Shown here: positions 2,489-32,000 of the stretch, one piece after another
Layout of the letters: the number at the start of each line of letters is the position of its first letter
Numbering within the stretch: position 1 is the stretch's first letter
Assembly (NCBI GenBank): GCA_902598275.1
Contig: CACKAZ010000009.1
Span: 14,481 to 46,480, forward strand
Direction: 5' to 3'
DNA: 32,000 nt
Source: an uncultured Alphaproteobacteria bacterium
GTDB lineage: Bacteria; Pseudomonadota; Alphaproteobacteria; HIMB59
Position numbers and translations under genes: made by a program
The notes under the pieces: generated by a model
Databases searched by the model: none
Told to the model about the DNA's origin: nothing
Seen by the model: only the letters and a program-made list of their open reading frames with translations

Positions 2489-2565
2489 GGCGGAGTAGCT
2501 CAGTTGGTTAGAGCGGTGGAATCATAATCCATGTGTCGGGGGTTCAAATCCCTCCTCCGCTACCA
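2489..2565 (+). tRNA. tRNA-Met (anticodon CAU), elongator type; lysidine-modified tRNA-Ile2 not excluded
   Basis: 77-nt cloverleaf read by eye. Acceptor GGCGGAG/CTCCGCT; D-arm GCTCAGTTGGTTAGAGC; anticodon stem-loop GTGGA-ATCATAA-TCCAT; T-arm GGGGG-TTCAAAT-CCCTC; encoded CCA. Confidence 0.88.
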
Positions 2566-2607
2566 ATTTAAGATTCAAAGATCAAATAAATAATATAATC
2601 TTTATTA

Positions 2608-3354
2608 ATGGAGTTTCAGACTATCACTCTAGCAGCAGGACTAGGCTCAAGATTAAAACATCTAACTAAACAATTACCTAAAACTCTTTTAAAAGTAAAA
2701 TCAAAATCTATAATTGGACATCAGTTAGACGCTTTTCATAAAAACAAAATTTTTAAAAATATTATTATTACAGGCCACTATTCAGAAAAGTTTCCTAAGA
2801 ACAATTGTGTATATATCAAAAATAAAAATTATAAAAAAAATAATATTCTAAATTCTTTATTTTATGCAAAAAGATTTATGAATACTAATACTATAATCTC
2901 ATATTCTGATATCCTATTTACACATAAAATAATATCAGAATTAATTATTGATGATAAGGATGTTACCTTAGTAGTTGATAAAGATTGGAGTAGAAACTAT
3001 CAAGATAGACAATTACATCCTATTCAGGAGGCCGAAAAAGTATGTTTTAAGTCTGACCAAATAATAAACATAGGAAAAAAAATATCATTCGTAGATGCTA
3101 ATGCAGAGTTTACAGGGCTCTTAAAGTTATCTAAAAGAGGATGCATAATATTTAAAAAGTATTTTGAATTGGCTAAACAAAAATTTTCCAATAAAAAATT
3201 TTATGAAGCAAATGATTTTAGCAAGGCATATATAACAGACTTTATTAAATATTTAATTGATAATGGTCTAACAATTAGCTACCTGAACATAAATAGTCCT
3301 TGGATGGAAATAGACACATTGGAGGATTATTTAAAATCTCAAAATTTCTTTTAG
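2608..3354 (+). CDS. LicC/PntC-like nucleotidyltransferase (candidate phosphonate or phospho-headgroup cytidylyltransferase)
   Basis: 248-aa ORF. N-terminal LAAGLGSRL...LPKTLL matches the G-x-G-x-R NTP-transferase loop. C-terminal WMEIDTLEDY is typical of LicC-type enzymes. It is the first gene of the plus-strand operon facing the phosphonate biosynthesis operon. Confidence 0.65.
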   Translation: MEFQTITLAAGLGSRLKHLTKQLPKTLLKVKSKSIIGHQLDAFHKNKIFKNIIITGHYSEKFPKNNCVYIKNKNYKKNNILNSLFYAKRFMNTNTIISYSDILFTHKIISELIIDDKDVTLVVDKDWSRNYQDRQLHPIQEAEKVCFKSDQIINIGKKISFVDANAEFTGLLKLSKRGCIIFKKYFELAKQKFSNKKFYEANDFSKAYITDFIKYLIDNGLTISYLNINSPWMEIDTLEDYLKSQNFF

Positions 3355-3361
3355 TAAATAA

Positions 3362-4882
3362 ATGTATTTAAAAATTAGTTTCTATATTACTAGCTTTTTT
3401 TTTACTTTTATTTATATATTTGAAGCATTTTACTTTAAAACTTATGGCATTTTCTCTAGTCTAAATGTCGGTAGATTTGTATTAAAAGATTTTTTAAGTG
3501 AATTTTCTTACATCAATAATTTAATTTCTTTTCTTTTTATATTTTCAATTTTATATTTCTTTCAAAAAAAATTGGGTCTTAAAATTAGAGACAACTTAAA
3601 AATTATAGATATTTTTTTTTTTACTTTATTTTTAATTTTTATAACAACTAATATTTTATCTCAGATACAATATCTAAAAGATATTTCTCTTTTACATGAT
3701 ATTTATAAGTTTATTTATTCAATTGTTAAAAATATTGTTATTTCTAAGTTATTACTTGTAATATTACCTTTATCTTTTTTTATAATTGCTCTTCAAAGAT
3801 TTAGTTTGCCTTTAGTTAAATTAAGAGAATTTTTTAGATATTTTATTATCTCTCTTGGTATTATCTTTATATTAGAGTCAATAATTTCTGTTATAAATCT
3901 TTATCCAAGATCCATTTATATTAATAATGATAATAATTTACATCAGGAAAAAAAAATAAATTCTAATACGGATGAACATAAAATTATATTAGTTGTATTT
4001 GATGAATGGGACTATCATGATACTTCAGATATCCTTAATACATTTCTAAGTAATTATGATAAAAAAAATTATTATTCTGGTTTTTTATCAAGTCGGTCAA
4101 CAAATACTTTTTGTTCAGTAATGCAGATACTTATGCCCGTTGATTTAGACACTAATTTATTTTGTATAATTACTAAAGATAACCAAGGAGTCCAAAATCA
4201 CAATTTAGAAATTTTTAATCAACCTAATTATTATAAAAATATTTTAAATAATTTTCATAATATTAATATTTATCATGACTACTATTTCCCTTATTGTAGA
4301 CTGGTATCATCTAATTCAAATAAGTGTTATGAAAATTCAATGAAAATAGAAAAAAAGAGTTTTTATTTTTTTACAGATAACTTGTTACAAGATTTTAAAA
4401 ATATTTTCAAATTATTCTATATTAAAACAATAGGAAAATTAATTCAAAAAGATTTAACATATAAATATTCTAATCCTGAGTTTAACTTAAACTCTAGAAA
4501 AACTCTCATAGACGATTTTTATCAAGATATTTCAAAAAAAGAAAATGGATTATTTTATTCTCACTTATTAATTCCACACATGCCTTATTTTTATGATGGC
4601 TTAAATTTCTCTAATTATGTTGGAGACTATCAAGGCAACACTATTTATTTGACTAATGTAATCAAAAATATTGAAAAATTAACTAATTTCAAAAATCAAA
4701 ATAACGTTACTTTAATTTTTACTTCAGACCATCATAATAGATACCCTGAAACTAAAAAAAAAGATGATAAAAACATCGTACCTATAATTATTTTTTCAAA
4801 AGATTTAAATAAAGATTTTAATATAAAAAGTCATTCTTCAATTAACACATTTATCAACAATTTTTCAAATATAATAAATTGA
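3362..4882 (+). CDS. membrane-anchored alkaline-phosphatase-superfamily (LtaS/EptA/sulfatase-like) transferase
   Basis: 506-aa ORF. Several N-terminal hydrophobic helices precede a soluble domain containing VVFDEWD (acidic metal site), SRSTNT (candidate Ser/Thr nucleophile) and TSDHH, which is the layout of LtaS/EptA-type enzymes. Confidence 0.5.
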   Translation: MYLKISFYITSFFFTFIYIFEAFYFKTYGIFSSLNVGRFVLKDFLSEFSYINNLISFLFIFSILYFFQKKLGLKIRDNLKIIDIFFFTLFLIFITTNILSQIQYLKDISLLHDIYKFIYSIVKNIVISKLLLVILPLSFFIIALQRFSLPLVKLREFFRYFIISLGIIFILESIISVINLYPRSIYINNDNNLHQEKKINSNTDEHKIILVVFDEWDYHDTSDILNTFLSNYDKKNYYSGFLSSRSTNTFCSVMQILMPVDLDTNLFCIITKDNQGVQNHNLEIFNQPNYYKNILNNFHNINIYHDYYFPYCRLVSSNSNKCYENSMKIEKKSFYFFTDNLLQDFKNIFKLFYIKTIGKLIQKDLTYKYSNPEFNLNSRKTLIDDFYQDISKKENGLFYSHLLIPHMPYFYDGLNFSNYVGDYQGNTIYLTNVIKNIEKLTNFKNQNNVTLIFTSDHHNRYPETKKKDDKNIVPIIIFSKDLNKDFNIKSHSSINTFINNFSNIIN

Positions 4883-5967
4883 ATAAAAATATTAAGATTA
4901 TAAATTTAGCACTGGGTTCTTATGAAGAATTTAATTTAGTTATTTACAACGAATCAAAAGAATACACTTTTATATTTGAGGATATCTGTAACCAAATTAA
5001 TTTGAAAAAATTTATATATTTATATTCAGATAAAGATGATTATTTAAACAAAAAATTATCTAGCATTCAATCTTGTAATATTGGAAATGGTATACTTAGA
5101 ACTATAATTTTAAACAACATTAAATCTAAAAAATTTCTTACAACCACTACTGATTTAAATAAGTATCAAATAAAAAAATCAAAATTCTGTAATAATTATT
5201 GTTATATATTTCACTCCTTGGTGAGTATCAATAAAGCTTATGAAGATAAGGCTTTTTATTCATATGATACTATCTTTGCACCAACTATTAACCACGCTAA
5301 TGAATTAAATAAATATAAGAATATGCATAATTTAAATATAAATATTTTAAAGGCTGGTTATCCATTAATAGACAAAATAAGTCAAATTAAATTTAAAAAT
5401 AATAACAATGATCAGATAAAGATTTTACTAGCCCCTTCTTGGGGTGATAATAATTTTTTTACTTTTGATTATGTAGAAATTCTAAAAGATATTCTTAAAG
5501 ATACTAAATATCAAATCACACTTAGACCACATCCTCATTATTATAGAAAAAATAAAAAAAAAATCTTAAAAAAATTAGAACAATTAAAAAAATTTGAAAA
5601 CTTTAAATTAAGTACAGAATATAATTTCTACGATTTAACTGAAAATGAAATATTAATTTCTGATATGTCAGGAATAACAATAGAATTTTTTTTACTCAAT
5701 AAATTAAAAATAATTTATTTAGATGACTCGTCAAAAGTTAAAAATAAAAACTTTGCCAGTATAGCCAGCATTACCTTAGAAGAAAGAATAAAAGAAAAAA
5801 TTGGTATTAAAGTAATTACGAATAATCTCAGTTCATTTCTAAAAGATTTTAATAGAAACGATTTATTGCTTGATAATCAAACAATAAATCAGACTATTAA
5901 TATAATTGGTTTATATAATTTCAAAAAATCTGCAAAATCAATTACTGATTATTTAGAAAATTATTAA
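4879..5967 (+). CDS. TagB/TagF-family CDP-alcohol phosphotransferase (CDP-glycerol glycerophosphotransferase-like)
   Basis: 362-aa ORF. Its TTG start overlaps the upstream stop (TTGA). LLAPSWGD, LRPHPHY and ILISDMSGITIEF correspond to the APTWR / HP / DYSS blocks of TagF-family enzymes. Confidence 0.6.
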   Translation: MNKNIKIINLALGSYEEFNLVIYNESKEYTFIFEDICNQINLKKFIYLYSDKDDYLNKKLSSIQSCNIGNGILRTIILNNIKSKKFLTTTTDLNKYQIKKSKFCNNYCYIFHSLVSINKAYEDKAFYSYDTIFAPTINHANELNKYKNMHNLNINILKAGYPLIDKISQIKFKNNNNDQIKILLAPSWGDNNFFTFDYVEILKDILKDTKYQITLRPHPHYYRKNKKKILKKLEQLKKFENFKLSTEYNFYDLTENEILISDMSGITIEFFLLNKLKIIYLDDSSKVKNKNFASIASITLEERIKEKIGIKVITNNLSSFLKDFNRNDLLLDNQTINQTINIIGLYNFKKSAKSITDYLENY

Positions 5968-5970
5968 ATT

Positions 5971-7095
5971 TTAATGCCATGATTTATAAATTATTTGCTT
6001 TATAATAGTCTTATTTACTGGTGCTATATTATTTAATGCTCTTTTTTTATCTAGCATTTGATCAATAAGGTTTTCTATATTTTTAAAAGTCTTTATCTTC
6101 TTTTTTACTTGAGATTTTACTTTTAAATTTTTAAGTATTATTTCTAATTTACTATCTAGACTTTTAATATTTAAATCATTTTCTAGTTCTATGAATAAAT
6201 TTTCTTTATGCGTTCTATTATATCTCATTACTTCTAGCATAGTAAAAGCGCATGCCATGCCATGATTTACAGAGTATTTAAGAGTTAATGGGTATGATAA
6301 TGAGTGGCATAATGCTGTCTTTGTAATATTAATTAAACAACCTGATAAAACACTACATTTAGATATATTTTTAAAAAATTTTTTCTCGTTACCCTCAAAA
6401 TAGCCAGAAAAGGCATTTAGTCCCATTTTGATAGCAATACTTGAATAAAATTTTGTTTTTCTAGTGGCATTTACGTTCCATATTGACTCAAATGACTGAT
6501 TTAAGGCATCAAGAGCAGAGGGTAAGAATATTTCTTTAGAGCTTAGAGAAGTTAAACTCGGATCCACAATGGCAATTTTTGGTAAGTTATTTACGCTATC
6601 ATAAGAGTATTTCTTTTTATTCTTCTTATCCCAAATTGTAGCAAATGATGTAGCCTCACTACCAGATCCACTAGTTGTTGGTAAAGCTATTATTTTTTTT
6701 GGATTAAACTTTTGTATGAGAGAATTTTTTTTAGTAAGAGCTTTTATATCAAATTCTTTTTTTCCGGAACATAACATAGCATTATAAATTTTAGTAAGAT
6801 CAATAATTGATCCACCACCTATAGCAATAAAATATCTAAAATTTTTATTGACTATTTGTTTATATATAATTTTTTTTTGGTATAAGCTGATTTCACTTGA
6901 AGGAATAATTACCTTATCTACATTTTCTAAATCAGTTAATGGTTTTAAAAATTTATCTTTTCTAATTTCATTAACACATCTTTTTGTACACACTAATAAA
7001 CATTTATAATTTTTTATATGATTAAAAATATTTTTTTTTTTATTTTTACCATAAATAATCTTAACGTTTGAAATATTTTTATAAGCAAATTTCAT
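5971..7095 (-). CDS. iron-containing alcohol dehydrogenase; by context phosphonoacetaldehyde reductase (forms 2-hydroxyethylphosphonate)
   Basis: 374-aa ORF with the Fe-ADH nucleotide motif AIGGGSIIDLTK and the His-rich metal region (LCHSLSYPL...HGMA). It is the last gene of the ppm-ppd operon, 8 nt after ppd. The family call is firm; the substrate is inferred from context. Confidence 0.7.
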   Translation of the reverse strand: MKFAYKNISNVKIIYGKNKKKNIFNHIKNYKCLLVCTKRCVNEIRKDKFLKPLTDLENVDKVIIPSSEISLYQKKIIYKQIVNKNFRYFIAIGGGSIIDLTKIYNAMLCSGKKEFDIKALTKKNSLIQKFNPKKIIALPTTSGSGSEATSFATIWDKKNKKKYSYDSVNNLPKIAIVDPSLTSLSSKEIFLPSALDALNQSFESIWNVNATRKTKFYSSIAIKMGLNAFSGYFEGNEKKFFKNISKCSVLSGCLINITKTALCHSLSYPLTLKYSVNHGMACAFTMLEVMRYNRTHKENLFIELENDLNIKSLDSKLEIILKNLKVKSQVKKKIKTFKNIENLIDQMLDKKRALNNIAPVNKTIIKQIIYKSWH

Positions 7096-7103
7096 ATAAT
7101 TGA

Positions 7104-8222
7104 TTAATCAAAATTTTTCATAAATAAACTTTTACTAACTTTCAAAGGGAGAGATGGCCTTAAGAGCTTTCCTGAACTTCCTTTTTTTGTGAGAACTTCT
7201 ATAAATACAGAGCTTTTAACTTTATTAAGATTTTTCAAAAAAAATTCTAATTTTTTTTTATTATCTATTCTTATTGCTTTTTTATACCCACATGCTTTTG
7301 CTATATTAGATAGTTTTAAAGATTTTGCAGCGTTTTCTTGTCCACCAACGGAATCATGAACACCATTATTTATAACAATATGAACTAAATTATTAATTTT
7401 AGATGTACCTATATTAGTTAATGAACCCATATGCATTATCATAGACCCGTCTCCATCAATACACAAAAACCTCTTTTTACTTCCAAGACACATACCAAGA
7501 GTTAGGCTAGAAGCATACCCCATAGCGCCTACATTAAGAAAATATCTTTGTTTAATAGTATTTTCAGTCTCAATATTAATTAGTTCTCTTGATGTATAGC
7601 CAGTTGTTGCAATAATTGGTAAATCTTTATTTACATATTTGATAATACTTTTAATAACTTCCTTTCTGCTCATCAATTTATAATCTTTTTTAATCCTATC
7701 TACTTTTTCTTTAACTAAAAATGAGTCCCTCTCAATTAAAAAAGCAACTGATTTTTTTTTATTTTGGTTTAATTCAAAACCTTTTTTAAATTTTAATTTA
7801 TTTTTATAACTATTTTTTTTTATAATAAAATATGGCATATCAATAATTTTAAGTAAATCTTCAGTCTTTTTTCCTTGAGGTCTATGTTGAGGTTCATCTT
7901 TTTTATTTTTGTCCCCTCTCCATCCAATTATAAATATCATAGGTATTTCATAGATATCTTTGTGAATTAATGAAAGCACAGGATTAATTATATTGCCCAA
8001 CCCAGCATTTTGTAAGTAGACAACTGGTGTCTTTTTAGTTGTTAAATAATATCCTGCGGCAATTCCTACTGCACTACCCTCATTAGATGCAATTAAATTT
8101 TGAAATTTGTTAATATCGACTAAATTTGAAAAATGTTTTAGAACTGAGTCAGGTACCCCAGTAAAAAAATTAATTTTATATTTATTAATTTCTTCGAAAA
8201 GAATATTCAAATTTTTATTCAT
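7104..8222 (-). CDS. ppd: phosphonopyruvate decarboxylase (ThDP-dependent)
   Basis: 372-aa ORF. N-terminal FFTGVPDS, and the ThDP motif GDGSMIMHMGSL...INNG. Its size and its position immediately downstream of PEP mutase fit Ppd/AepY. Confidence 0.85.
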   Translation of the reverse strand: MNKNLNILFEEINKYKINFFTGVPDSVLKHFSNLVDINKFQNLIASNEGSAVGIAAGYYLTTKKTPVVYLQNAGLGNIINPVLSLIHKDIYEIPMIFIIGWRGDKNKKDEPQHRPQGKKTEDLLKIIDMPYFIIKKNSYKNKLKFKKGFELNQNKKKSVAFLIERDSFLVKEKVDRIKKDYKLMSRKEVIKSIIKYVNKDLPIIATTGYTSRELINIETENTIKQRYFLNVGAMGYASSLTLGMCLGSKKRFLCIDGDGSMIMHMGSLTNIGTSKINNLVHIVINNGVHDSVGGQENAAKSLKLSNIAKACGYKKAIRIDNKKKLEFFLKNLNKVKSSVFIEVLTKKGSSGKLLRPSLPLKVSKSLFMKNFD

Positions 8223-8227
8223 TTAAT

Positions 8228-9523
8228 TTAGTTTATTAACTTAATAATTTTTTTTATTGAACTTATATTTTTATCAGCCTCATAAGCTCTACCATTCTTT
8301 AGAATTTGAGAAGCTGTTTCTTCCATGGCTTTGTGAGCAGATCTCAAAAGTTGATTAGCATAAATAACTATATTAGCACCACCAAAGAAAAGTTCCCTCT
8401 CTCTGGTAGAAGAATATGTAGATGGAACCACCATTACGATTGAGTCCTCACTAAACTTTCTAAATTTTTTTAGAAAATCTAAAATTTCTTTAGAATCCTT
8501 TTTTTTACTATGTATAAATATTCCATCTGCACCAGATTTAACATAATTTTTAGATCGTCGTATTGCGTCTTTCATACCGTTTCCTAGTATTAAGCTTTCA
8601 ATTCTTGCAAAAACCATAAAATCTTTTGAAATTCTCGAGTTACAGGCAACTTCAATTTTTTTTGAAAAATTTTTAACAGTATCTTGGAGTGATTTAGACT
8701 GATCAGCAAATAAAGAGTTTATTTTTAATCCAGTTTTATCCTCTAAAACTACTGCTGATACACCCGACTTTTCAAGAGATTTTACAAGATAGGGCAAGTG
8801 CTCAATTTTTCCACCATTATCGGCATCAAATATTATTGGTTTAGATGATATGTTTGTAATTTCATTTAAACCGTTAATTCTTATTGAATAATCTACAGAT
8901 TGATTATCTGGCATAGCCCTAATAGTGGAGTCTGTGAGACTAGAGGACCATAAAAGATCAAATGCTTTAGTTTTATTTTTTTCTTTTAATTTTGTGTTCT
9001 CAATAATATGAGCGCTCATTCCATTATGGGCCTCAATGCCAATCAAATTTTGTCTTAAGACAAGCATTCTTTTTAGTAACGACACTCTTGATGATATTGA
9101 AAGGTTTAAATCTATTTTATCTTTTATAAGTTTTCTTGAAATATTTGATGTGAATGGGACTTCAATAAGTTTGCCACCCCAAGATTTCATCTCATTAATG
9201 ACAAACTTTCTAACTTGAGATAGATTACCTTTTTTCCAATCATCACCATGCACAAAGTAATCAGGTTTTATCTTCTTTAATGTTTGTTTATAATCCCAGT
9301 CATCTTGCTTTATAATTTGACTAATTCCAGATAATTTAGATACTAAATTATATCTTTCATTGTAACTTAAAATTGGAAATTCTCTGTATTGACTGATGGC
9401 TTTGTCAGATAGTAATCCAATAATCACATCTCCATACTTTCTTGCATGTTTTATAATATTTAGGTGACCTGAATGAACTATATCAGACGCCAGAGGAACA
9501 TATGATATTTTTTTTAAAACCAT
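8228..9523 (-). CDS. ppm: cytidylyltransferase (HxGH, TagD-like) :: phosphoenolpyruvate phosphomutase fusion
   Basis: 431-aa ORF. Residues ~1-130 carry DIVHSGHLNII (HxGH) and TSNISRK, the cytidylyltransferase-like fold. The C-terminal ~290 aa carry the PEP-mutase-specific VVLEDKTGLKINS (EDKxxxxxNS) plus ARIES and GADGIFIHSKK. Confidence 0.88.
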   Translation of the reverse strand: MVLKKISYVPLASDIVHSGHLNIIKHARKYGDVIIGLLSDKAISQYREFPILSYNERYNLVSKLSGISQIIKQDDWDYKQTLKKIKPDYFVHGDDWKKGNLSQVRKFVINEMKSWGGKLIEVPFTSNISRKLIKDKIDLNLSISSRVSLLKRMLVLRQNLIGIEAHNGMSAHIIENTKLKEKNKTKAFDLLWSSSLTDSTIRAMPDNQSVDYSIRINGLNEITNISSKPIIFDADNGGKIEHLPYLVKSLEKSGVSAVVLEDKTGLKINSLFADQSKSLQDTVKNFSKKIEVACNSRISKDFMVFARIESLILGNGMKDAIRRSKNYVKSGADGIFIHSKKKDSKEILDFLKKFRKFSEDSIVMVVPSTYSSTRERELFFGGANIVIYANQLLRSAHKAMEETASQILKNGRAYEADKNISSIKKIIKLIN

Positions 9524-10812
9524 TGGCTAGTATCAGACTCTATTCTAAGAATATCTTTGGGTTTCATTTGTGATATTTGTATTTTAATATCACCAGATAT
9601 TTTATTATCAATTCTTAAGATAAGAAACTTACTACCAACTTTGGGAAAACTATGTTTTACAAAAGGTTTAATATAAATAGTCTCCATATAACTCATTTTA
9701 ATTTTTTTTGAATTGATAGAAATTGAAGAAGAGTCCACAAGTGCATAAATATATTGGTGTGATGAAATACTAAAAAATTTATTATTTTTTTTTACTACTT
9801 CTAATTCAAGACCTTTTGAGGAAGGAACATTTGGAGAAGATGCAAGAAAAAATAATTTGAAAATTTGACTTTTTAAATTTGGAAAGAAATATTTTTGATA
9901 ATTTATCTTCTTTAAAACAACAACTTCAGTTTCCTTTTTGACTGAAAGAATCTCTCTAATATTAACATTTAAAAAATCTGATATTTTTATCAAATCATTA
10001 ATACTGAAGTCTATTTTGCCCTGAATTTTATTATCATAATCCTTTATAGATACTCTCTCTCTGAGATTATCTTTGCTTAAAGACATATTGTCTAAAAAAT
10101 TTAATATTTGATTATGTGAATTAGAATAATTAGACACCTTCTTAAGGTAATTTTTATCTTTCAAGGAAGATAAATTTAATAATTCTTTTTGTGTTTCAAA
10201 GTTTATTTTATCTTCAAAAGTTACAGCTACTATGTAAGAAATTCCTTTCTTACTTCTTGTTGTAAATGAGTGAGGTACATAAGGTGGAATATAGCAACTA
10301 TCACCAGATTTCATTTTTGATAATGTTTTTTTTCCATTCTTTAAATAGTAAAAATTAACATCTCCAACAAAATATGTGAACTGATGGAGTAAGTGACCTT
10401 TGTTCCAGGCAACTAATTTATTATCTGGTTTATCATCTTTAGTATAGCATAGAGTTCTTATCCATTCTGGCTTATATGGAGCATTTCTTTCAGTAGCTGT
10501 ATCTTTGTATTCATAATAATCAAGACCATTACGCTGCATAAGTCGCGCTGATTTATTGCTAATATTATTCTTTATATAAATAAATTCTGAGTCATTGATT
10601 TGGGGGTTAATTAAATCAGAAATTTTAATTGGCCAAATCTTCGACATTGAATTTATAATTTCGAGTGTTATTGGTTTTTTGCCATTTAAAATTTTTTCAA
10701 ATTCTTTTTGAGATAAATTTAATTCTTTAGCAGCATCCTTGTCTCTTCTTTTAATATCGTTAAGTATCTGTTTGAGCCTAACGTTAGAAAATACGTTATT
10801 TTTTTTTGACAT
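9514..10812 (-). CDS. mpnS: 2-hydroxyethylphosphonate oxygenase of the HEPD/MpnS bicupin family; residue pattern favours methylphosphonate synthase
   Basis: 432-aa ORF built as a tandem [helical XRE-like domain + cupin] duplication (YIPPYVPHSF vs YIKPFVKHSF). The first cupin has H140-x3-Q144...H181, with F154 and I175. It overlaps the ppm start by 10 nt (ATGGTTTTAA). See finding 1. Confidence 0.65.
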   Translation of the reverse strand: MSKKNNVFSNVRLKQILNDIKRRDKDAAKELNLSQKEFEKILNGKKPITLEIINSMSKIWPIKISDLINPQINDSEFIYIKNNISNKSARLMQRNGLDYYEYKDTATERNAPYKPEWIRTLCYTKDDKPDNKLVAWNKGHLLHQFTYFVGDVNFYYLKNGKKTLSKMKSGDSCYIPPYVPHSFTTRSKKGISYIVAVTFEDKINFETQKELLNLSSLKDKNYLKKVSNYSNSHNQILNFLDNMSLSKDNLRERVSIKDYDNKIQGKIDFSINDLIKISDFLNVNIREILSVKKETEVVVLKKINYQKYFFPNLKSQIFKLFFLASSPNVPSSKGLELEVVKKNNKFFSISSHQYIYALVDSSSISINSKKIKMSYMETIYIKPFVKHSFPKVGSKFLILRIDNKISGDIKIQISQMKPKDILRIESDTSQWF

Positions 10813-11026
10813 TCTTTTTGTTCAAATTTTTTTTGAAAATTTTATTATAAATATTGATTATTTTATGTTTAATTACAATTAATGAAGCTATGCCAGATGC
10901 TATCAAAACACCAATCATAGAAAAAAGTCCTCCTGGTTCTATATATGCAAATGCATTTTTTGAAAAAACACAACCCAAAGACAAAATGAGTAATAAATTT
11001 TTAAAAACTATTATAATTTTAAACAT
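10796..11026 (-). CDS. small hydrophobic/polybasic membrane protein (76 aa; alternative 40-aa product from internal ATG at 10918)
   Basis: The ORF opens the phosphonate operon and overlaps the mpnS start by 17 nt. It has a signal-like N-terminus (LLLILSLGCVFSKNAFA), a second hydrophobic helix (LFSMIGVLIASGIASLIVI) and a Lys-rich tail. I recognise no family. Confidence 0.4.
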   Translation of the reverse strand: MFKIIIVFKNLLLILSLGCVFSKNAFAYIEPGGLFSMIGVLIASGIASLIVIKHKIINIYNKIFKKNLNKKNVKKK

Positions 11027-11033
11027 GCTATTA

Positions 11034-11058
11034 GAATTTCACATATATATTGAAATTC
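11034..11058. repeat. inverted repeat GAATTTCA-N9-TGAAATTC (operator or 5'-UTR hairpin candidate)
   Basis: A perfect 8-bp inverted repeat read directly from the sequence. It lies 8 nt upstream of the ATG at 11026 (minus strand), inside the 62-nt gap between that ORF and tRNA-fMet. Confidence 0.5.
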
Positions 11059-11065
11059 AACAATA

Positions 11066-11071
11066 ATTATA
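11066..11071 (-). promoter_or_regulatory. candidate -10 box (TATAAT on the minus strand) for the phosphonate operon
   Basis: Plus-strand ATTATA at 11066-11071 is TATAAT on the minus strand, ~40 nt upstream of ATG 11026. No convincing -35 is present, because that region would fall in the tRNA-fMet 5' end. Confidence 0.25.
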
Positions 11072-11088
11072 TATCTTTCGTCTCATGG

Positions 11089-11165
<77 letters not shown>

Positions 11166-14228: not shown

Positions 14229-15726
<1,498 letters not shown>

Positions 15727-15819
15727 AGGAAAAAAAACTTTGAACTAAGTGTACGTTTAAAGTAACCACCGTCTATTTGTTTTGCTTTTTTCAACTAAAG
15801 TTGATAAAGGGCATCGATT

Positions 15820-15896
15820 GGGCGTGTAGCTCAGTTGGTTAGAGCGCGCGCTTGATAAGCGTGAGGTCGGAGGTTCAAGTCCTCCCTCGCCCACCA
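15820..15896 (+). tRNA. tRNA-Ile (anticodon GAU)
   Basis: GGGCGTGTAGCTCAGTTGGTTAGAGCGCGCGCTTGATAAGCGTGAGGTCGGAGGTTCAAGTCCTCCCTCGCCCACCA is a classical spacer tRNA-Ile, colinear with the E. coli ileT type. Confidence 0.95.
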
Positions 15897-15904
15897 ACAC
15901 TGTT

Positions 15905-15980
15905 GGGGGATTAGCTCAGCTGGGAGAGCGCCTGATTTGCATTCAGGAGGTCAGCGGTTCGATCCCGCTATCCTCCACCA
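15905..15980 (+). tRNA. tRNA-Ala (anticodon UGC)
   Basis: GGGGGATTAGCTCAGCTGGGAGAGCGCCTGATTTGCATTCAGGAGGTCAGCGGTTCGATCCCGCTATCCTCCACCA. The G3:U70 alanine identity pair is present. Confidence 0.95.
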
Positions 15981-16017
15981 ACTTTTTTAAAATCGTAAAT
16001 ATGTAAGCTGATAACAC

Positions 16018-16056
16018 AGACGAATAACTTGCACGAGTTGTTCGTCAATTTAACAA
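16018..16056 (+). promoter_or_regulatory. spacer hairpin (boxB-like) followed by a second boxA-like element
   Basis: GACGAATAACT-TGCACG-AGTTGTTCGTC forms a 10/11-bp stem. It is immediately followed by CAATTTAACAA, which resembles the boxA core CTCTTTAACAA at 9 of 11 positions. Confidence 0.4.
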
Positions 16057-16118
16057 CTAATATAACAACAAATAACTACAAAAAGTTATTAACAACAAAC
16101 TTTTCACTGTGTGTTAAT

Positions 16119-18838
<2,720 letters not shown>

Positions 18839-18879
18839 AATACACAGCGAAAAGTTTTAACTATATGTTATAAAAAGTT

Positions 18880-18992
18880 TGTGGCGGTCATAGCGGAGTG
18901 AAAAAACCCGATCCCATTTCGAACTCGGTCGTGAAGGCCTCCAGCGCCGATGGTACTAAGTCTTAAGGCTTGGGAGAGTAGGACGCCGCCTG
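18880..18992 (+). rRNA. rrf: 5S ribosomal RNA
   Basis: GTGGCGGTCATAGCGGAGTG...CCCATTTCGAACTCGGTCGTGAA...GCGCCGATGGTACT...GGGAGAGTAGGACGCCGCC is colinear with bacterial 5S. It lies only ~41 nt after 23S. Ends are +/- 3 nt. Confidence 0.93.
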
Positions 18993-19039
18993 TTTATTTT
19001 CTCACATATTTATTTTTTTTTATTTTTTGTCGCATATTA

Positions 19040-19056: not shown

Positions 19057-19821
19057 ATGGTTTCAATTAATTCTAAACAGAGAGCTAACGAGACAGAAAA
19101 AGAATACTCAAAAAGTATTGAAGATTATTTATTTGAGCATAATGGAAAAAAACTTGAGCAATTAAATGTTGATTGTTTTCCAAACTTTACCACTACAAAT
19201 TTAATAAGAAAATTATTTGTAAGATATGAACTATACAGAAAAACTTTTAAAATTCATGGTGATATCTTCGAGTGTGGAGTAGGTTATGGTCCAGGTTTTT
19301 TTTCTTGGCTGCATTTGAAAAATATTTTTGAACCATATAATCACCTCAGAAAAATAGTCGGTTTTGACACATTTGAGGGCTTTGAAAAGATATCGGATCA
19401 AGATAAATCAAGTTTACATAATGATGACCTAATAGAAAAAGGTCTCAAAGCAGATGTTTTTAATAAGCTTTTAAATTTATTAAGTATGAAATCAAAATTA
19501 TATCCTAATCCCCACTTAGAACAGGCCTTTTTAATTAAAGGCGATATAATACAAACACTTGATCAATATCTTGAAAAAAATTCCCAAACAATTGTCTCAT
19601 TATTATTCCTAGATTTTGATCTTTATGAACCTACTCTCCATGTTTTAAATAGAGTCGTTCCTTTGATGTCAAAGGGAGCAATTATAGCTTTTGATCAGAT
19701 TAACCATGATTTTTGGCCAGGTGAGTCTGTCGCAGTAAAAGATTATTTTGGAAAAAATTTTGGAGATATTGAAATTAAAAGGTTAGATATATCAGGGACA
19801 ACTTCATATATAGAAATTTAA
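19057..19821 (+). CDS. TylF/MycF-family SAM-dependent (sugar) O-methyltransferase
   Basis: 254-aa ORF. GDIFECGVGYG, VGFDTFEGF and LLFLDFDLYEPT...LMSKGAIIAFDQ match the TylF-family blocks (G.ivEcGvwrG, DsFeG, lD.DlYeST...GG.i..DDY). Confidence 0.7.
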   Translation: MVSINSKQRANETEKEYSKSIEDYLFEHNGKKLEQLNVDCFPNFTTTNLIRKLFVRYELYRKTFKIHGDIFECGVGYGPGFFSWLHLKNIFEPYNHLRKIVGFDTFEGFEKISDQDKSSLHNDDLIEKGLKADVFNKLLNLLSMKSKLYPNPHLEQAFLIKGDIIQTLDQYLEKNSQTIVSLLFLDFDLYEPTLHVLNRVVPLMSKGAIIAFDQINHDFWPGESVAVKDYFGKNFGDIEIKRLDISGTTSYIEI

Positions 19822-20753
19822 TCTTTTGTGTTTACTTCTTCATCAACAATGACTTGATTTAAATTTTGATTTTGAGAGTAAACTCTATTTAAATATTCAC
19901 CAATCACTCCCAACATTATTGCATTAATGCCCATAGATATTAATATTAAGCATACTAATGTTGCAAAACCAGAAACTTCGATTCCAAAATAAAATCTCTC
20001 AAATAAGTAATATAAAATCAAACAAAAAGAAGACATTGTTATAAATATTCCTAAATAAAGAATGAATCTTAATGGTATTGAGGAATATTGCGTTATGCCT
20101 GTAAATGCAAAGTCAATATATGAAAATAAATTAAATTTCGATTTTCCAGCTTTTCTTTTTTCTCTTGTGTATTCAATGCCCTTTTGTTTAAATCCTATTT
20201 TTGCAATCGCACCTCTTATATACAAATCGTTAATATTATTCTTGAGTAGAAATGTAATAATCTTTCTTGAAACAAGCCTGAAATCTCCTGCATTTACAGG
20301 TATAGAATTATTGCTCATTTTGAATAATAAAAAGTAAAATATCTTTATCAAAATATTTATTATAAAACCATCACTTCTATTTTTTCTTACACCATAAACT
20401 ACTTCATAACCATTCTCCCATTCAGCTATGAATAATTTAAAAAGCTTTGGGCTATCTTGTAAATCACAATCAATTTGAATAACAGCATCTCCTTTAGCTA
20501 CAGAGTATCCATACATCAGTGAGTTTTGAATACCAAAATTATTTGAATATCTATAAGCTCTGACATTAGAGTCCTTTTTACAAATAACTTTTATTTTATT
20601 AAAGGTATCATCAAGACTTCTGTTATCTAGAAAGATTATTTCATAGTCATATAGTTCTAAATTATTTAGTTCTCTCTTCACTTCTTCATAACATTTTAAA
20701 ATATTTTCACTCTCATTAAATGTTGGTATTAATATTGATATAATTTTTTTCAT
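19818..20753 (-). CDS. GT2 polyprenyl-phosphate glycosyltransferase (GtrB/ArnC/DPM1-like, two C-terminal TM helices)
   Basis: 311-aa ORF. ILIPTFNESENI, FLDNRSLDDT and IQIDCDLQD form the GT2 catalytic core. The C-terminus has two hydrophobic helices, as in GtrB/ArnC. Confidence 0.8.
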   Translation of the reverse strand: MKKIISILIPTFNESENILKCYEEVKRELNNLELYDYEIIFLDNRSLDDTFNKIKVICKKDSNVRAYRYSNNFGIQNSLMYGYSVAKGDAVIQIDCDLQDSPKLFKLFIAEWENGYEVVYGVRKNRSDGFIINILIKIFYFLLFKMSNNSIPVNAGDFRLVSRKIITFLLKNNINDLYIRGAIAKIGFKQKGIEYTREKRKAGKSKFNLFSYIDFAFTGITQYSSIPLRFILYLGIFITMSSFCLILYYLFERFYFGIEVSGFATLVCLILISMGINAIMLGVIGEYLNRVYSQNQNLNQVIVDEEVNTKD

Positions 20754-21754
20754 AATATTTTAGAAATTTGAAAAACAGATTTTTTAAATATATCACCATT
20801 AGAGTAATATGTCTTATACCAATCTACTGTATCTTTAATGCTTTGTTTAAAGCTAAAAGTATTTTGATATTTAATTTTTTTTCTAATATAAGTCGAGTTT
20901 ATTCTAAGATGAAGATCTTCTGAAACATAATTCTTTTCAAAAGTCCAATTTATATTAATGTGAGGTTTAATTCTTTCTATTATTTCTTTTATAGAATAAC
21001 TTTTAAATTTTGAAGAAAAATTTATTGCATCATGATCAAATTTAATTTTATTTTCATAAATTATATTTGTAACAATTATTAAAAAGTTTAAAAGTTCAAG
21101 AATATATGTCCATGGTCTAGTGCTATTTATAGACCTTATCTTTAACTTTTTATTATTTGAATAAGATTCAAATAGGTCAAAGAAAAATCTATTTGTATTA
21201 AAGTCACCTCCGCCATATAAATTACCACATCTAATATTAAGAATTTTTAAATTATAAAGTTTCTTATAGTTCATAGAAAGTAAGTCTGACATTATTTTTG
21301 TGGTACCATAAATAGTGTTACTTCCAAAATTAGATTTTTCATTATGACTTTTATTTTTATTTTCGTATACTTTATCTGATGTAAAATTAATCAGATTAAT
21401 ATGTTTATTTTTTTTTATATACTCTAAAACATTTAAAATAGATAGAGTATTATTTTTGACTGAAACATCTGGAAAAGTATTACAAAAATGAACTAAAGAA
21501 TGAGCAGCTAAATTTATGATAATATCAGGTTTAAAATCATTCAGCACAGTAAATAAATTTTTTCTATTAGTAATATCTATATACTTAAATTTTATTTTAT
21601 TTTTTATTTTATTATGAAATTTATTTTTTTTTTCATTTAAACCAATTCCAAGATATTTATGATTTGTCTGAGAAAAATAAAGGCAAATCCAACTACCGAC
21701 AAAACCTGTAGCTCCAAGTACAACAATTTTTGAATTTTTAAATTTTTTACTCAT
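20750..21754 (-). CDS. rfbG: CDP-glucose 4,6-dehydratase family SDR
   Basis: VVLGATGFVGSWICLYF, FTSDKVY, YGTTK (YxxxK), RCGNLYGGGDF and TRPWTYILE parallel Salmonella RfbG (VTGHTGFKGSWL, ITSDKCY, RAGNVIGGGDW, IRPWQHVLEP). I prefer ATG 21754 (ATGAGTAA overlap with the rfbF stop) over the track start at 21787. Confidence 0.72.
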   Translation of the reverse strand: MSKKFKNSKIVVLGATGFVGSWICLYFSQTNHKYLGIGLNEKKNKFHNKIKNKIKFKYIDITNRKNLFTVLNDFKPDIIINLAAHSLVHFCNTFPDVSVKNNTLSILNVLEYIKKNKHINLINFTSDKVYENKNKSHNEKSNFGSNTIYGTTKIMSDLLSMNYKKLYNLKILNIRCGNLYGGGDFNTNRFFFDLFESYSNNKKLKIRSINSTRPWTYILELLNFLIIVTNIIYENKIKFDHDAINFSSKFKSYSIKEIIERIKPHININWTFEKNYVSEDLHLRINSTYIRKKIKYQNTFSFKQSIKDTVDWYKTYYSNGDIFKKSVFQISKIL

Positions 21755-22466
21755 AAATTGTCCATGGACTAATTTTGTAATCTTCAAGTATATTTTTATC
21801 TCTTATCGTATCACAAGGATGCCAAAAACCATTATGTTTGTAAGCATTTAATTGTTTATTTTGGCTTAATAAAGGTAGTGTATATTTTTCAAAAGATAAG
21901 TCTTTATTTGAAGGAAAATAATTAAGTAATTTTTTTCTATCTGCAACAAAGAAACCACCGTTTATCCATGAGTTTTTATTTACAAATTTTTCTGAAAATT
22001 TAGTCACTAAATTTTTATTATTTAGAACCATTGCACCAAATCTGGCAGGTGGATGCACAGCTGTCACAGTAACAGCTTTTTTTGATTTAATATGTGAATT
22101 TACAACTTTTTTAATATTCACATTAGATAGCCCATCGCCATAAGTAATCATTATTTGTTCATCATCTATTTTGTTAAGAATCTTTTTTATTCTACCACCA
22201 GTCGTCGTTCTTAGACCCGTGGGCTCAACAGAGATAACTAATTTTTTTTTTTTATTTATTTGTTTGAGGTTTTTAACATATTTATTTATAAGTTCACCTT
22301 TATAACCAGTAAGAATTATAAATTCATTAAATAAATAATTGGTATAGTGGTTAATAATATGCCCTAGTAGTGGAATTTTATTTATTTTAACTAAGGGTTT
22401 TGGTTTTTTAATTGTTTCTTCACTCAATCTTGTACCTAGACCACCAGCTAATATTAATACCTTCAT
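21747..22466 (-). CDS. rfbF: glucose-1-phosphate cytidylyltransferase
   Basis: 239-aa ORF. MKVLILAGGLGTRLSEETIKKPKPLV... and the C-terminal GFWHPCDTIRDKNILE match RfbF (ILAGGLGTRISEET..KPKPMV; GFWQPMDTLRDK). Confidence 0.85.
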   Translation of the reverse strand: MKVLILAGGLGTRLSEETIKKPKPLVKINKIPLLGHIINHYTNYLFNEFIILTGYKGELINKYVKNLKQINKKKKLVISVEPTGLRTTTGGRIKKILNKIDDEQIMITYGDGLSNVNIKKVVNSHIKSKKAVTVTAVHPPARFGAMVLNNKNLVTKFSEKFVNKNSWINGGFFVADRKKLLNYFPSNKDLSFEKYTLPLLSQNKQLNAYKHNGFWHPCDTIRDKNILEDYKISPWTIYE

Positions 22467-22475
22467 TTTATTTAT

Positions 22476-23009
22476 CTAATCTTTGAAGAGAAGTTTAAAC
22501 TCATTTATAAAGGGTTTAGATCTGGATAATACTTTTCTAAGATCATTTAGTATTTTTTCTTGAACTTCTGGGTCTATGTCATTTTTATCTTGAGAAGCTT
22601 TATCAAGCTCGTGTATTATTTTATCGAAAAAGTCACCCCCTCTTGAAAATTTTGAATAATTAACTTTTAACACCTCACTTTTTATAAAACTAAAAATTAC
22701 AATTAATGTAATTATAAAAAAGAATAAATTTGAAATAAATTTCAAAAATGTTTTTTTAAAAATTGAAAAATACTGATCTTTATTTGTAAATGAGTTATTT
22801 AAAGGTTCATATTTTCTTATTTGTTTAAATTTATTTTTTTTCAAAAATTCCAAATATTCTGTGTATTTAACTTTTAAATTTTTTAAACTTTGGTTTTGAG
22901 TTTTTCCTTCAGCAAGTATCCCCAAAGATTCTATTTCAGATATAAAAATATTATTTTTTTTTCTTAAAGTAATTTCTTCTTGATCAAATTCCATTTTATC
23001 TCCGAACAA
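22476..23009 (-). CDS. hypothetical single-pass membrane protein
   Basis: 177-aa ORF (or 172 aa from the second ATG at 22994). It has one hydrophobic helix (LFFFIITLIVIFSFI) between two hydrophilic halves. I recognise no family. It overlaps the 3' end of the upstream GT-C gene by 31-46 nt. Confidence 0.4.
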   Translation of the reverse strand: MFGDKMEFDQEEITLRKKNNIFISEIESLGILAEGKTQNQSLKNLKVKYTEYLEFLKKNKFKQIRKYEPLNNSFTNKDQYFSIFKKTFLKFISNLFFFIITLIVIFSFIKSEVLKVNYSKFSRGGDFFDKIIHELDKASQDKNDIDPEVQEKILNDLRKVLSRSKPFINEFKLLFKD

Positions 23010-24421
23010 ATATATTTAATTAAAATAATATTAAAAATAAAAATATAATTTAGTGTTAGTATCGAGTATCTTGGTTCAAAATGAGTCAACATTGAATAAA
23101 TACCATAATGATAAACTAGTGGTAAAGAAAGAGCTATTATCAGAAAATTAAATCTTGTTAATCCATATAATATTCCAAAAAACATAATAATGAAATTTAC
23201 AAAAGTAAAATATCTATAAAATACTGTTTTGATGTCTTGATAATCTCCCAATCCGTTAATAACATTTAACGTGCCTCTTTGAAGGAATAAAGGAGTTAGG
23301 TATAAGTGTTTGGGTAAATTTTCAATAAGAACTCTTAATGACTCATCTTTAATCTCATAAAACACTTTCCTGTTTATAGGATCAATTCTTTTTAAAACTA
23401 CTCCTTCATCTGTGAAAGCTTTACAATACCAATTCTCAGTATTACTACAGCTTAATTCAAATCTTTCTAGGTTTTTGAAATCAATGTTACTTAAAGCTTT
23501 GTCCTTTAAGTTACTTTTAAAATAGTACAACCAATGACCAGCTTGTTTTTCGTCCTCATTCATAGTGAGATATTCAAGCCTTTGCATAATAGCTCCGGCA
23601 TATCCTCTGGGGCTTAATTCAAAAAAACCTAACTCATTAAAATTCCTTACTTTCCAAAGTGTTGGTATAATCATAGCTATTACTAGAAAAGTTGAAATTT
23701 GTTTATAATTTATTGCTATATGGAGGTTGGTTTGTAAATTATTTTTTTTAAATAAGTAATTAAATATCATAATTAGTAATAACATAATAAAACAGACATA
23801 AATTGAGAAAAAATATACAAATTTTGTCATTATTAATAATGAAAATAAAAAACCGTATATTATAATTTTATTTAAAGTTAGGTTTTTATATATAAAAATT
23901 TTATATATACAAAATGAAGAAATTATAAATAATAAAGATCCTAAAACTTCAGTCAAATATTCATTTAAGTATTTTATTAAAAGAGGATTATTAAGCATTA
24001 TGAATAAAGAGAGAAGAATTATAGTGTCGTGTATCTTAAATTCTTTTAAAAATATGAATGCAGCAATTAAAGTTAAGATCAAGTATATAAAATTTAAGTA
24101 CTTTCCACTTAAAATATATTTAGAGCATTTTGTTTTATCTTGAAAAAGACAGTCTAAGTTAGTGTCATCATTTAATCCCATAGCTTTATAATTCAGTGAT
24201 AGAAAGAAAGGGTATAACGGTTCTCTATAAAAACTTGGTTTAGGTTTTTCATTTCTGTCATAATCGTGAATATTATATTGAGCTAAATTATAGGCAGTAT
24301 TAAAGTATTGATATGCATCCCCCCCTGGTATTGGTAATGAGTATTCTATGCTTTTATTCTGTATAGAAAATAAAGAGAGAATAATTAATATAAGAACGGA
24401 TAAGTTAAAAATTTTTAACAA
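22964..24421 (-). CDS. GT-C fold glycosyltransferase (ArnT/PMT, GT39/GT83-like)
   Basis: 485-aa ORF with a TTG start and more than 10 hydrophobic helices. The first-loop acidic/aromatic motif PIPGGDAYQYF and YREPLYPFFL resemble ArnT/PMT-family loop motifs. It is co-operonic with a GtrB-like GT2. Confidence 0.55.
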   Translation of the reverse strand: MLKIFNLSVLILIILSLFSIQNKSIEYSLPIPGGDAYQYFNTAYNLAQYNIHDYDRNEKPKPSFYREPLYPFFLSLNYKAMGLNDDTNLDCLFQDKTKCSKYILSGKYLNFIYLILTLIAAFIFLKEFKIHDTIILLSLFIMLNNPLLIKYLNEYLTEVLGSLLFIISSFCIYKIFIYKNLTLNKIIIYGFLFSLLIMTKFVYFFSIYVCFIMLLLIMIFNYLFKKNNLQTNLHIAINYKQISTFLVIAMIIPTLWKVRNFNELGFFELSPRGYAGAIMQRLEYLTMNEDEKQAGHWLYYFKSNLKDKALSNIDFKNLERFELSCSNTENWYCKAFTDEGVVLKRIDPINRKVFYEIKDESLRVLIENLPKHLYLTPLFLQRGTLNVINGLGDYQDIKTVFYRYFTFVNFIIMFFGILYGLTRFNFLIIALSLPLVYHYGIYSMLTHFEPRYSILTLNYIFIFNIILIKYICSEIKWNLIKKKLL

Positions 24422-24425
24422 TTTT

Positions 24426-24441
24426 ATTTAAATATTTAAAT
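24426..24441. repeat. perfect 16-bp palindrome ATTTAAATATTTAAAT in a 50-bp divergent intergenic region
   Basis: Read directly; the sequence equals its own reverse complement. It sits between start 24421 (minus) and start 24472 (plus). Confidence 0.6.
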
Positions 24442-24471
24442 TTTAGACTAAGGTATCGATTTTAAACAATT

Positions 24472-25401
24472 ATGAAAGTATTAATTACAGGAGGAGCAGG
24501 GTATATAGGTTCATTATTGATAGACTATATATTAAAAAAAAATTTTAAAATAACAGTCATTGATAACTTTAACTATGAAGAAACAAGCCTATTACAATAT
24601 AACTCAAATCCTAATTTTAGTTGTATTAGGGGAGATGCTAGGGATTTAAAACTCATTGAACAACACATTAGAACTCATGATATAATAATACCTCTTGCTG
24701 CTTTAGTAGGAGCCCCTTTGTGTGACAGAGATCCACAATTAGCTTATAGTATAAACACTGATGTAATATCTGAGATATGTAAAATAAAAAGTAAAGATCA
24801 AATAATATTATTTCCCATGACTAATAGTGGTTATGGTATAGGTGGCCAAGAAATGTGTACTGAACAGAGTAGATTAAATCCTATCTCAATTTATGGTAAA
24901 TCAAAAGTTGAAGCTGAAAAATTTATCACTAATTCAGAAAATTTTATTTCATTCAGATTGGCAACTGTCTTCGGTGTATCTAATAGATTAAGACTTGATT
25001 TGTTAGTTAATAACTTTGTATGGCGTGCAATTAAAGATAAATTTATAGTTCTTTATGAGTCTAAATTTAGAAGAAACTACATTCATGTTAGGGATGTTTG
25101 TAGATGTTTTTGCTACTCTATAGATAATTTTGAAAAAATGAAAAATCAAATTTTTAATTTAGGTCTATCATCAGCGAATTTATCCAAAATGGAATTATGT
25201 GAAAAAATTAATCAACACACAAAAAATTTCACAATTTTTGAGTCAGAAATTTCAAATGATCAAGATAAAAGAGATTATATCGTATCTAATGCTAAAATTG
25301 AGTCTATGGGGTTTAAAACAGAATATGATCTTGATTATGGCATAGATGAATTAATTAAGGTTTATAATTATATAGATACAAAGTTTTACTCAAATTATTA
25401 A
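24472..25401 (+). CDS. NAD-dependent sugar epimerase/dehydratase (extended SDR)
   Basis: 309-aa ORF with the MKVLITGGAGYIGS Rossmann motif and catalytic SIYGKSK (YxxxK). Confidence 0.8.
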   Translation: MKVLITGGAGYIGSLLIDYILKKNFKITVIDNFNYEETSLLQYNSNPNFSCIRGDARDLKLIEQHIRTHDIIIPLAALVGAPLCDRDPQLAYSINTDVISEICKIKSKDQIILFPMTNSGYGIGGQEMCTEQSRLNPISIYGKSKVEAEKFITNSENFISFRLATVFGVSNRLRLDLLVNNFVWRAIKDKFIVLYESKFRRNYIHVRDVCRCFCYSIDNFEKMKNQIFNLGLSSANLSKMELCEKINQHTKNFTIFESEISNDQDKRDYIVSNAKIESMGFKTEYDLDYGIDELIKVYNYIDTKFYSNY

Positions 25402-26899: not shown

Positions 26900-26901
26900 A
26901 T

Positions 26902-30546: not shown

Positions 30547-30547
30547 T

Positions 30548-31906: not shown

Positions 31907-32000
31907 TATTTGCAAATATAAATTTCTTTATAATATTAACAATATATTTTATTTCATTTTTTTTAATAAAAGGATTTATTGGTAAGCAAACAACTCTATC
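31896..32000 (-). CDS. C-terminal 34 codons of a gene entering from the right edge; DegT/DnrJ/EryC1-type aminotransferase-like tail
   Basis: My reverse-complement translation from 32000 reads DRVVCLPINPFIKKNEIKYIVNIIKKFIFANNGI*. This resembles the C-terminal ..LSLPlhP.Lt.eei.yVi..ik.f block of sugar aminotransferases. It overlaps the gmhA start by 11 nt. Confidence 0.4.
   Translation of the reverse strand, partial: DRVVCLPINPFIKKNEIKYIVNIIKKFIFANNGI

Follow-up and report, generated by a model that had tools for sequence, protein, structure and literature searches.

A divergent predicted methylphosphonate synthase in a seven-gene island beside a marine alphaproteobacterial rRNA operon

The locus described here lies on contig CACKAZ010000009.1, in a 32,000-nucleotide stretch that we refer to, at its full length, as the window. 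Its central gene, mpnS, encodes a 432-residue protein that, judged from its sequence, is very probably a functional methylphosphonate synthase (MpnS), a non-haem Fe(II) oxygenase with a 2-His-1-Gln triad. The gene belongs to an 8.5-kb cassette (2566-11089) of seven genes, which sits between two tRNA-Met genes beside a ribosomal RNA (rRNA) operon (Table 1). Four minus-strand genes, of which mpnS is the first, run head to tail with overlaps or gaps of at most 10 nt, and three plus-strand genes converge on them. The original prediction, made from the bare sequence, had given the right coordinates and motifs for the open reading frame (ORF) and had not mentioned its strand; mpnS is read from the minus strand, and the plus-strand frame across the same interval is riddled with stops.

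The encoded protein is an internal duplication of a helical, helix-turn-helix (HTH)-like domain followed by a cupin, as had been proposed, and profile comparison bears this out, as do Pfam and PDB matches, which put an HTH and a cupin into both halves. When one profile for the N-terminal half and one for the C-terminal half were built from 121 members of the MpnS family and aligned against each other with hhalign, they matched with a probability of 99% (E = 3.2e-18, 161 columns) and superimposed the motifs SGDSCYIPPYVPHSF (residues 169-183) and SYMETIYIKPFVKHSF (residues 374-389), which places the duplication far beyond chance. Pfam recognizes an HTH domain at residues 12-69, a weaker one at residues 265-288 and a weak cupin at residues 166-195, and the MpnS family profile also retrieves small HTH proteins and single cupins that match the second half.

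Across the enzymes to which the original prediction had proposed to align the protein, MpnS matches best throughout. The top PDB match in HMMER is the Nitrosopumilus maritimus MpnS (6b9s/6b9t; E = 1.7e-75, 258 bits, residues 14-432), followed by the Streptomyces albus HEPD (SaHEPD, 6b9r; E = 2.1e-53, 185 bits), and a 16-sequence family profile scores MpnS at 587 bits, SaHEPD at 323 and PhpD at 13. The AlphaFold2 model of the protein (predicted local distance difference test (pLDDT) 85.6, predicted template modelling score (pTM) 0.78) likewise has MpnS as its closest fold, with a superposition score (TMq) of 0.90 to 6b9s/6b9t, 0.85 to SaHEPD and 0.72 to PhpD, the last at 16-17% identity in the fold alignment; unrelated bicupins score about 0.4. 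The protein thus combines full-length homology to a characterized MpnS with the duplicated HTH and cupin fold. HppE, an enzyme of about 198 residues with a 2-His-1-Glu iron site and half the length of the query, aligns to one half only (residues 48-199, E = 3e-5), and identity as an HppE epoxidase was rejected because HppE is a single HTH and cupin unit whereas the query is a duplicated one.

The residues expected around the iron fall where the original prediction had read them. In the HMMER alignment to the N. maritimus enzyme, H140, Q144, F154 (ten residues after the Gln), I175 (six before the distal His) and H181 pair with H148, Q152, F162, I184 and H190, and SaHEPD has His, Gln, Tyr, Gly and His at the same columns. 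Published marker rules assign H148, Q152, F162, I/V184 and H190 to MpnS, and A/Q152, I/Y162 and E/G184 to hepD (Lockwood et al. 2022, Suppl. Table S2, PMC9381506). The query has the whole 2-His-1-Gln triad (H140, Q144 and H181, in columns that are invariant in two family alignments) together with the Phe and Ile that would pin the Gln. It carries F154 and I175 in place of the Y162 and G184 that accompany Q152 in class II (SaHEPD-type) HEPDs, and Q144 and I175 where class I (PhpD-type) HEPDs would have Ala152 and Glu184; no Glu of the query aligns to an HEPD E176-type ligand, which the original prediction had named as a sign of an HEPD. Its statement that HEPDs have Tyr at the first of the two distinguishing positions holds for class II, and class I has Ile there. 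At the columns of K28, R102, Y110 and N145 of the N. maritimus enzyme, which we take to be its contacts with 2-hydroxyethylphosphonate (2-HEP), the query has K21, R94, Y102 and N137 as putative substrate contacts. The five-residue ligand and pinning pattern recurs in 118 of 121 metagenomic homologues, and the nine-residue pattern that includes the presumed contacts in 71 of the 80 mpnS loci from other genomes (species representatives) that served as our comparison set.

Departures from this pattern occur within the MpnS clade itself. A thaumarchaeal locus (L024, from Marine Group I thaumarchaeote F20) encodes a protein whose backbone is otherwise that of a Nitrosopelagicus-like MpnS and whose markers are the Tyr and Gly of class II HEPDs, and three Chloroflexi/SAR202 loci (L010, L014 and L049) show a mixed Tyr/Ile pattern from which a product is not predictable.

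The genes that follow mpnS are those expected to make its substrate. Their co-directional, tight packing agrees with the original claim that mpnS lies directly upstream of phosphoenolpyruvate (PEP) mutase, phosphonopyruvate decarboxylase (Ppd) and an iron-dependent alcohol dehydrogenase (Fe-ADH) in one operon, and mpnS and the mutase gene overlap by 10 nt. These three annotations stand; what had been missing is that the mutase carries an N-terminal cytidylyltransferase (CyTase) domain. Its mutase part reaches 336 bits against TIGR02320 (cut-off 319.6) and has the catalytic motif EDKTGLKINS, in agreement with the EDKxxxxxNS signature, and Ppd reaches 391 bits against TIGR03297 (cut-off 312.5). 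The mpnS gene is therefore clustered with a full set of candidate 2-HEP-making genes (ppm, ppd and an alcohol dehydrogenase), and homologues of these partners are frequent across the comparison loci (CyTase-fused ppm in 68, Fe-ADH in 66 and ppd in 64 of 80). A small ORF that overlaps the mpnS start codon is conserved in L082, a metagenomic contig with an 86.5%-identical copy of the cassette, where it is called as a 67-residue gene.

Read together, these genes suggest a pathway in which the mutase domain would convert PEP to phosphonopyruvate, Ppd would decarboxylate this to phosphonoacetaldehyde, and the Fe-ADH would reduce the aldehyde to 2-HEP. MpnS would then bind 2-HEP on an Fe(II) held by H140, Q144 and H181, activate O2 and cut the C1-C2 bond. 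We propose that F154 and I175 keep Q144 bound to the metal and that for this reason the resulting methylphosphonate radical would be quenched to methylphosphonate (plus CO2 or bicarbonate) and would escape the hydroxylation that takes place in HEPD.

The three convergent genes suggest that methylphosphonate is activated and then attached to a surface glycan. The protein resembling LicC and PntC has its best PDB relatives in 6pd1 ('Nucleotidyl transferase/aminotransferase, class V', E = 6.5e-10) and in LicC itself (1jyk, E = 2.9e-9), and homologues of this nucleotidyltransferase occur in 47 of the 80 loci; TagF-like homologues occur in 25. Either the CyTase domain fused to the PEP mutase or the LicC/PntC-like enzyme would probably cytidylylate the product of MpnS, which the TagF-like transferase may then pass to a polysaccharide or glycoprotein of the cell surface, possibly with the involvement of the orphan membrane protein. 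This orphan has only two homologues (71-74% identical) among 5.8 billion proteins. Its C-terminal part carries the motifs VVFDEWDY, HLLIPHMPY and TSDHHN in the alignment, it matches PF01676 weakly (E = 0.0023), and its AlphaFold2 model has a pLDDT of 33; the motifs, which resemble those of LtaS, EptA and sulfatases, suggest that it may be an alkaline-phosphatase-superfamily transferase. A PDB sequence search with the orphan and the TagF-like protein found nothing useful. Two-thirds of phosphonate clusters include nucleotidyltransferases, 23.6% of Ppm enzymes are PF01467-Ppm fusions and the CyTase of Fom1 makes cytidine monophosphate (CMP)-HEP (PMC6697681), and transferase-rich mpnS neighbourhoods have been read as pointing to methylphosphonate esters on surface polymers (PMC9381506; bioRxiv 10.1101/2020.11.04.368217).

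Table 1. Features of the mpnS cassette and its surroundings, in window coordinates; functions are predictions from sequence comparison.
Feature	Coordinates	Strand	Description
tRNA-Met(CAT) number 1	2489..2565	+	Left cassette boundary
LicC/PntC-like nucleotidyl (cytidylyl) transferase	2608..3354	+	248 aa; PF00483, PF12804
Orphan protein	3362..4882	+	506 aa; hydrophobic N-terminal ~180 aa and soluble domain
TagF/TagB-like glycerophosphotransferase-family protein	4879..5967	+	362 aa; putative phosphonyl transferase to glycan
Fe-dependent alcohol dehydrogenase	5971..7095	-	374 aa; PF00465, PF25137; putative phosphonoacetaldehyde reductase, would make 2-HEP
Phosphonopyruvate decarboxylase (Ppd/AepY)	7104..8222	-	372 aa; thiamine pyrophosphate (TPP) N and C domains; GDG motif
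Cytidylyltransferase (PF01467)::PEP mutase fusion	8228..9523	-	431 aa; Pfam PF01467 1.7e-16, PF13714 1.4e-43
mpnS	9514..10812	-	ATG-initiated ORF, 432 aa; [HTH+cupin]x2 bicupin, predicted methylphosphonate synthase
Small ORF, signal/transmembrane-like sequence	10796..11026	-	76 aa; core FAYIEPGGLFSMIGVLIASG; overlaps mpnS start codon
tRNA-Met(CAT) number 2	11089..11165	+	Right cassette boundary; initiator-like 5' end
Second insertion relative to L081	11223..13945	+	603-aa polytopic membrane protein and 304-aa protein; no family matches
rRNA operon 16S-tRNAIle(GAT)-tRNAAla(TGC)-23S-5S	14229..18994	+	Conserved anchor next to the island

Within the family the protein is divergent. It is 35-41% identical to genome-derived MpnS and 47-49% identical to its nearest clade, and it stays at or below 49% identity to all but one small metagenomic cluster; a scan of species-representative genomes gave no match above 41% full-length identity. 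A neighbour-joining tree with SaHEPD as its root places the query and a single relative at 88% identity on a long branch inside the marker-bearing clade, sister to the metagenomic group at 47-49%. The sequence is absent from the curated 2022 MpnS database.

Two further kinds of MpnS-like protein came to light in the same comparisons. One is a clade of 369-377-residue proteins (P0009, P0019, P0027, P0031 and the protein of L050) that retain all marker residues and lack the second HTH, with a central deletion of about 65 alignment columns; L050 is a gammaproteobacterial metagenome-assembled genome, SI072_bin62, and one member is recorded as 'hypothetical protein [Gammaproteobacteria bacterium]'. 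The other is found on three virus-classified contigs (L087 7569-9263, L088 7572-9266 and L089 7551-9326), where a single reading frame joins a CyTase domain (PF01467) to an MpnS-like bicupin; the fusion proteins have 564-592 residues and the complete marker set K, R, Y, N, H, Q, F, I and H. Two of these (L087 and L088) are IMG/VR contigs of 83 and 164 kb in which the fusion adjoins ppm, ppd and a 3-hydroxyisobutyrate-dehydrogenase-like reductase. The virus-classified contigs have a guanine-plus-cytosine (GC) content of about 43%, and the genes around the fusion look like those of eukaryotes or giant viruses (a GH38 mannosidase::LicD fusion, a nucleotide-sugar transporter, a Stealth/galactosyltransferase and a Cas1p acyltransferase), and our literature search found no paper tying methylphosphonate synthesis to giant viruses.

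The cassette is present in some strains and absent from others at one chromosomal site. In two relatives, L081 (9013-9217) and L083 (6735-6938), the two tRNA-Met genes lie about 50 nt apart upstream of the rRNA operon, with no cassette between them. The first of these is the single-cell genome GCA_902522155.1, which is 85% identical to the window over the core genes map-sfsA-cinA, 99.2% in 16S and 99.1% in 23S; there the tRNA-Met pair stands directly upstream of the rRNA operon, and no phosphonate genes are present. The site is likewise empty on contigs whose SfsA is more distant (66% identical) and whose 16S is 99.1% identical, so that among these related contigs a 16S identity of 99% goes together with an SfsA identity of only 66%. 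On contig L082 the cassette adjoins rRNA-leader-like sequence. Clusters at 90% identity hold 280-575 members for the flanking core genes and 1-3 for the phosphonate genes, which marks the cassette as a rarely carried accessory island of an organism that is itself abundant. Origin of the tRNA-Met pair by duplication was considered and rejected, as the two are different tRNA species, no integrase was found, and no att-like direct repeats bound the island. A second insertion relative to L081, of 2.8 kb, occupies the interval between tRNA-Met number 2 and the 16S gene. A promoter and terminator scan returned 96 sites against 97.8 expected, a comparison that says little in DNA so rich in AT.

What doubt we retain about the 432-residue enzyme, slight in our estimation, concerns whether its product is truly methylphosphonate. 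Several observations count against reading the locus as a methylphosphonate pathway. The nearest biochemically characterized relative, the N. maritimus MpnS, is only about 35-38% identical in sequence; the Phe/Ile rule reportedly goes back, in the work of Born et al. in 2017, to a few characterized enzymes and one engineered HEPD; and the natural mixed marker patterns indicate that the markers can switch within the family, so that similarity alone is no predictor of product. The best NCBIfam family of the Fe-ADH is TIGR03405 (Phn_Fe-ADH), against which it scores 189 bits and so falls short of the 424-bit cut-off. The 362-residue TagF-like protein of the window has no Pfam match, and its 82%-identical orthologue on L082 matches PF04464 (5.4e-8, 32.6 bits, above the cut-off of 22.1). 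The cytidylyl-transfer and glycan-attachment steps, finally, are ones that we infer from family membership only.

The alternative closest to these points is a class II HEPD-type dioxygenase that would turn 2-HEP into hydroxymethylphosphonate and formate. The strong match to the S. albus enzyme, with its common fold and His/Gln/His site, would fit it, as would the occurrence, at similar identity within the same clade, of relatives with the HEPD-like (L024) or mixed (L010, L014 and L049) markers; we nevertheless consider it improbable, since the two positions that distinguish HEPD are here Phe154 and Ile175, the MpnS state, and since MpnS scores above HEPD in every comparison. Slightly less probable again is that the enzyme acts on another or a nucleotide-activated substrate, such as CMP-2-HEP in the manner of the Fom1 pathway or another hydroxyalkylphosphonate, and that the end product is something other than free methylphosphonate. 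The PF01467 domain of the PEP mutase is indeed of the kind found in Fom1, which on the route to fosfomycin produces CMP-HEP (PMC6697681), and the three virus-classified contigs have the same kind of domain fused directly to an MpnS-like protein. Against this, all of the residues that we presume to bind 2-HEP are conserved in the query, the nearest solved structure (6b9t) holds free 2-HEP on the iron, and the AlphaFold2 model of the query has neither an added nucleotide-binding domain nor a pocket-forming insertion. Least probable of all, and in our view very unlikely, is that mpnS survives in a hypervariable island only as an inactive or decaying leftover with no current function. Its position in a flexible region absent from close relatives and its 90% cluster of three members, beside hundreds for the flanking core genes, would be compatible with decay, but the reading frame is unbroken over its full length and keeps every catalytic residue, and dN/dS (the ratio of nonsynonymous to synonymous substitution rates) relative to the L082 copy is 0.10 for mpnS (88% identical there) and 0.11-0.15 for the other cassette genes, five genes in all, values low enough to place them under purifying selection. 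A methylphosphonate synthase thus remains much the most probable identity of the enzyme.

The rRNA operon bears on the host. Its 5S gene is contiguous with the 23S, separated by a 43-nt spacer, and the 23S match covers 2718 nt of the window against a bacterial model of 2925 positions. A contiguous 5S is the arrangement of HIMB59 and not that of SAR11 subclades Ia and IIIa, where the operon is split (Grote et al. 2012, PMC3448164). Core proteins on syntenic contigs are identical or near-identical to records labelled 'Pelagibacteraceae bacterium' or 'Alphaproteobacteria bacterium', and NCBI places HIMB59 under Pelagibacteraceae. Three of four SAR11 fluorescence in situ hybridization (FISH) probes have no match here, and a SAR11 Ia V4 sequence is only 76% identical; we take this poor fit to SAR11 as no more than a lead. 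The host would accordingly be a streamlined marine alphaproteobacterium, a member of the Pelagibacteraceae in the NCBI sense, and possibly AEGEAN-169/HIMB59-like. Downstream of the 5S gene, a second glycan-biosynthesis region (19057-31915) encodes a TylF-like methyltransferase, GT2 glycosyltransferases, several nicotinamide adenine dinucleotide (NAD)-dependent epimerase/dehydratases, nucleotidyltransferases, a GHMP kinase, RmlC, a split transketolase, an aldo-keto reductase and a SIS-domain protein, so that the rRNA operon is flanked on both sides by surface-polysaccharide genes. A more specific conjecture, which we advance tentatively and hold to be rather doubtful, is that the host is not a canonical SAR11 but of the AEGEAN-169/HIMB59 type or another deep branch of the 'Pelagibacteraceae', and that the cassette is a horizontally exchanged island at a tRNA-Met/rRNA hotspot.

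Set against known systems, the protein is a divergent member of the MpnS family and no new kind of enzyme. It shares with the N. maritimus MpnS the duplicated HTH and cupin architecture, the length, the His/Gln/His triad, the Phe/Ile pair and the context of ppm, ppd and an alcohol dehydrogenase, and differs in its bacterial host with about 25% GC; unlike the archaeal locus, the window has a cytidylyltransferase joined to the PEP mutase and a different set of tailoring genes, namely the TagF-like transferase and the orphan membrane protein. The MpnS of SAR11/Pelagibacteraceae (GORG single-amplified genomes AG-365-D07 and AG-908-E21, and Pelagibacter ubique) come from similarly streamlined marine alphaproteobacterial hosts, in which the gene is likewise accessory, with equal marker residues and similar cassettes, but the query is only 37-41% identical to them. 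The class II HEPD of S. albus shares fold, His/Gln/His site and the expected substrate 2-HEP; it makes hydroxymethylphosphonate and scores lower throughout. The class I HEPD PhpD and HppE are cupin Fe(II) phosphonate oxygenases, the first a bicupin and the second matching one HTH and cupin half; unlike the query, both have 2-His-1-Glu iron sites, and the sequence similarity of PhpD is negligible. MpnS itself, its 2-His-1-Gln site, the Phe/Ile markers and its occurrence in SAR11-type cells and many other lineages are already published, with about 80% of the MpnS-bearing single-cell genomes in GORG-Tropics belonging to SAR11 (bioRxiv 10.1101/2020.11.04.368217), and this locus leaves the picture of the enzyme, its markers and its general host range unchanged.

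The main points of note are instead the structure of the island, the divergent MpnS subclade that the locus adds and a host that is possibly non-canonical. Which organisms carry the gene is of consequence because, among possible precursors of methane in oxic seawater, the methylphosphonate that MpnS makes is the leading candidate. A compact seven-gene island that is present or absent between strains with 99% identical 16S helps in estimating the abundance of producers and the spread of the trait. As the query is at or below 49% identity to nearly all other sequences, the 60% identity thresholds of the 2022 metagenome survey (PMC9381506) would probably miss the subclade. Should the tentative view of the host and island hold, methylphosphonate production would be an accessory trait that differs from strain to strain within a second abundant group of streamlined alphaproteobacteria. 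Descriptions of that group, the AEGEAN-169/HIMB59 type, have until now presented it as consuming phosphonates. The MpnS subclade would then lie outside current marker databases, and surveys of marine producers would undercount the organisms that make methylphosphonate.

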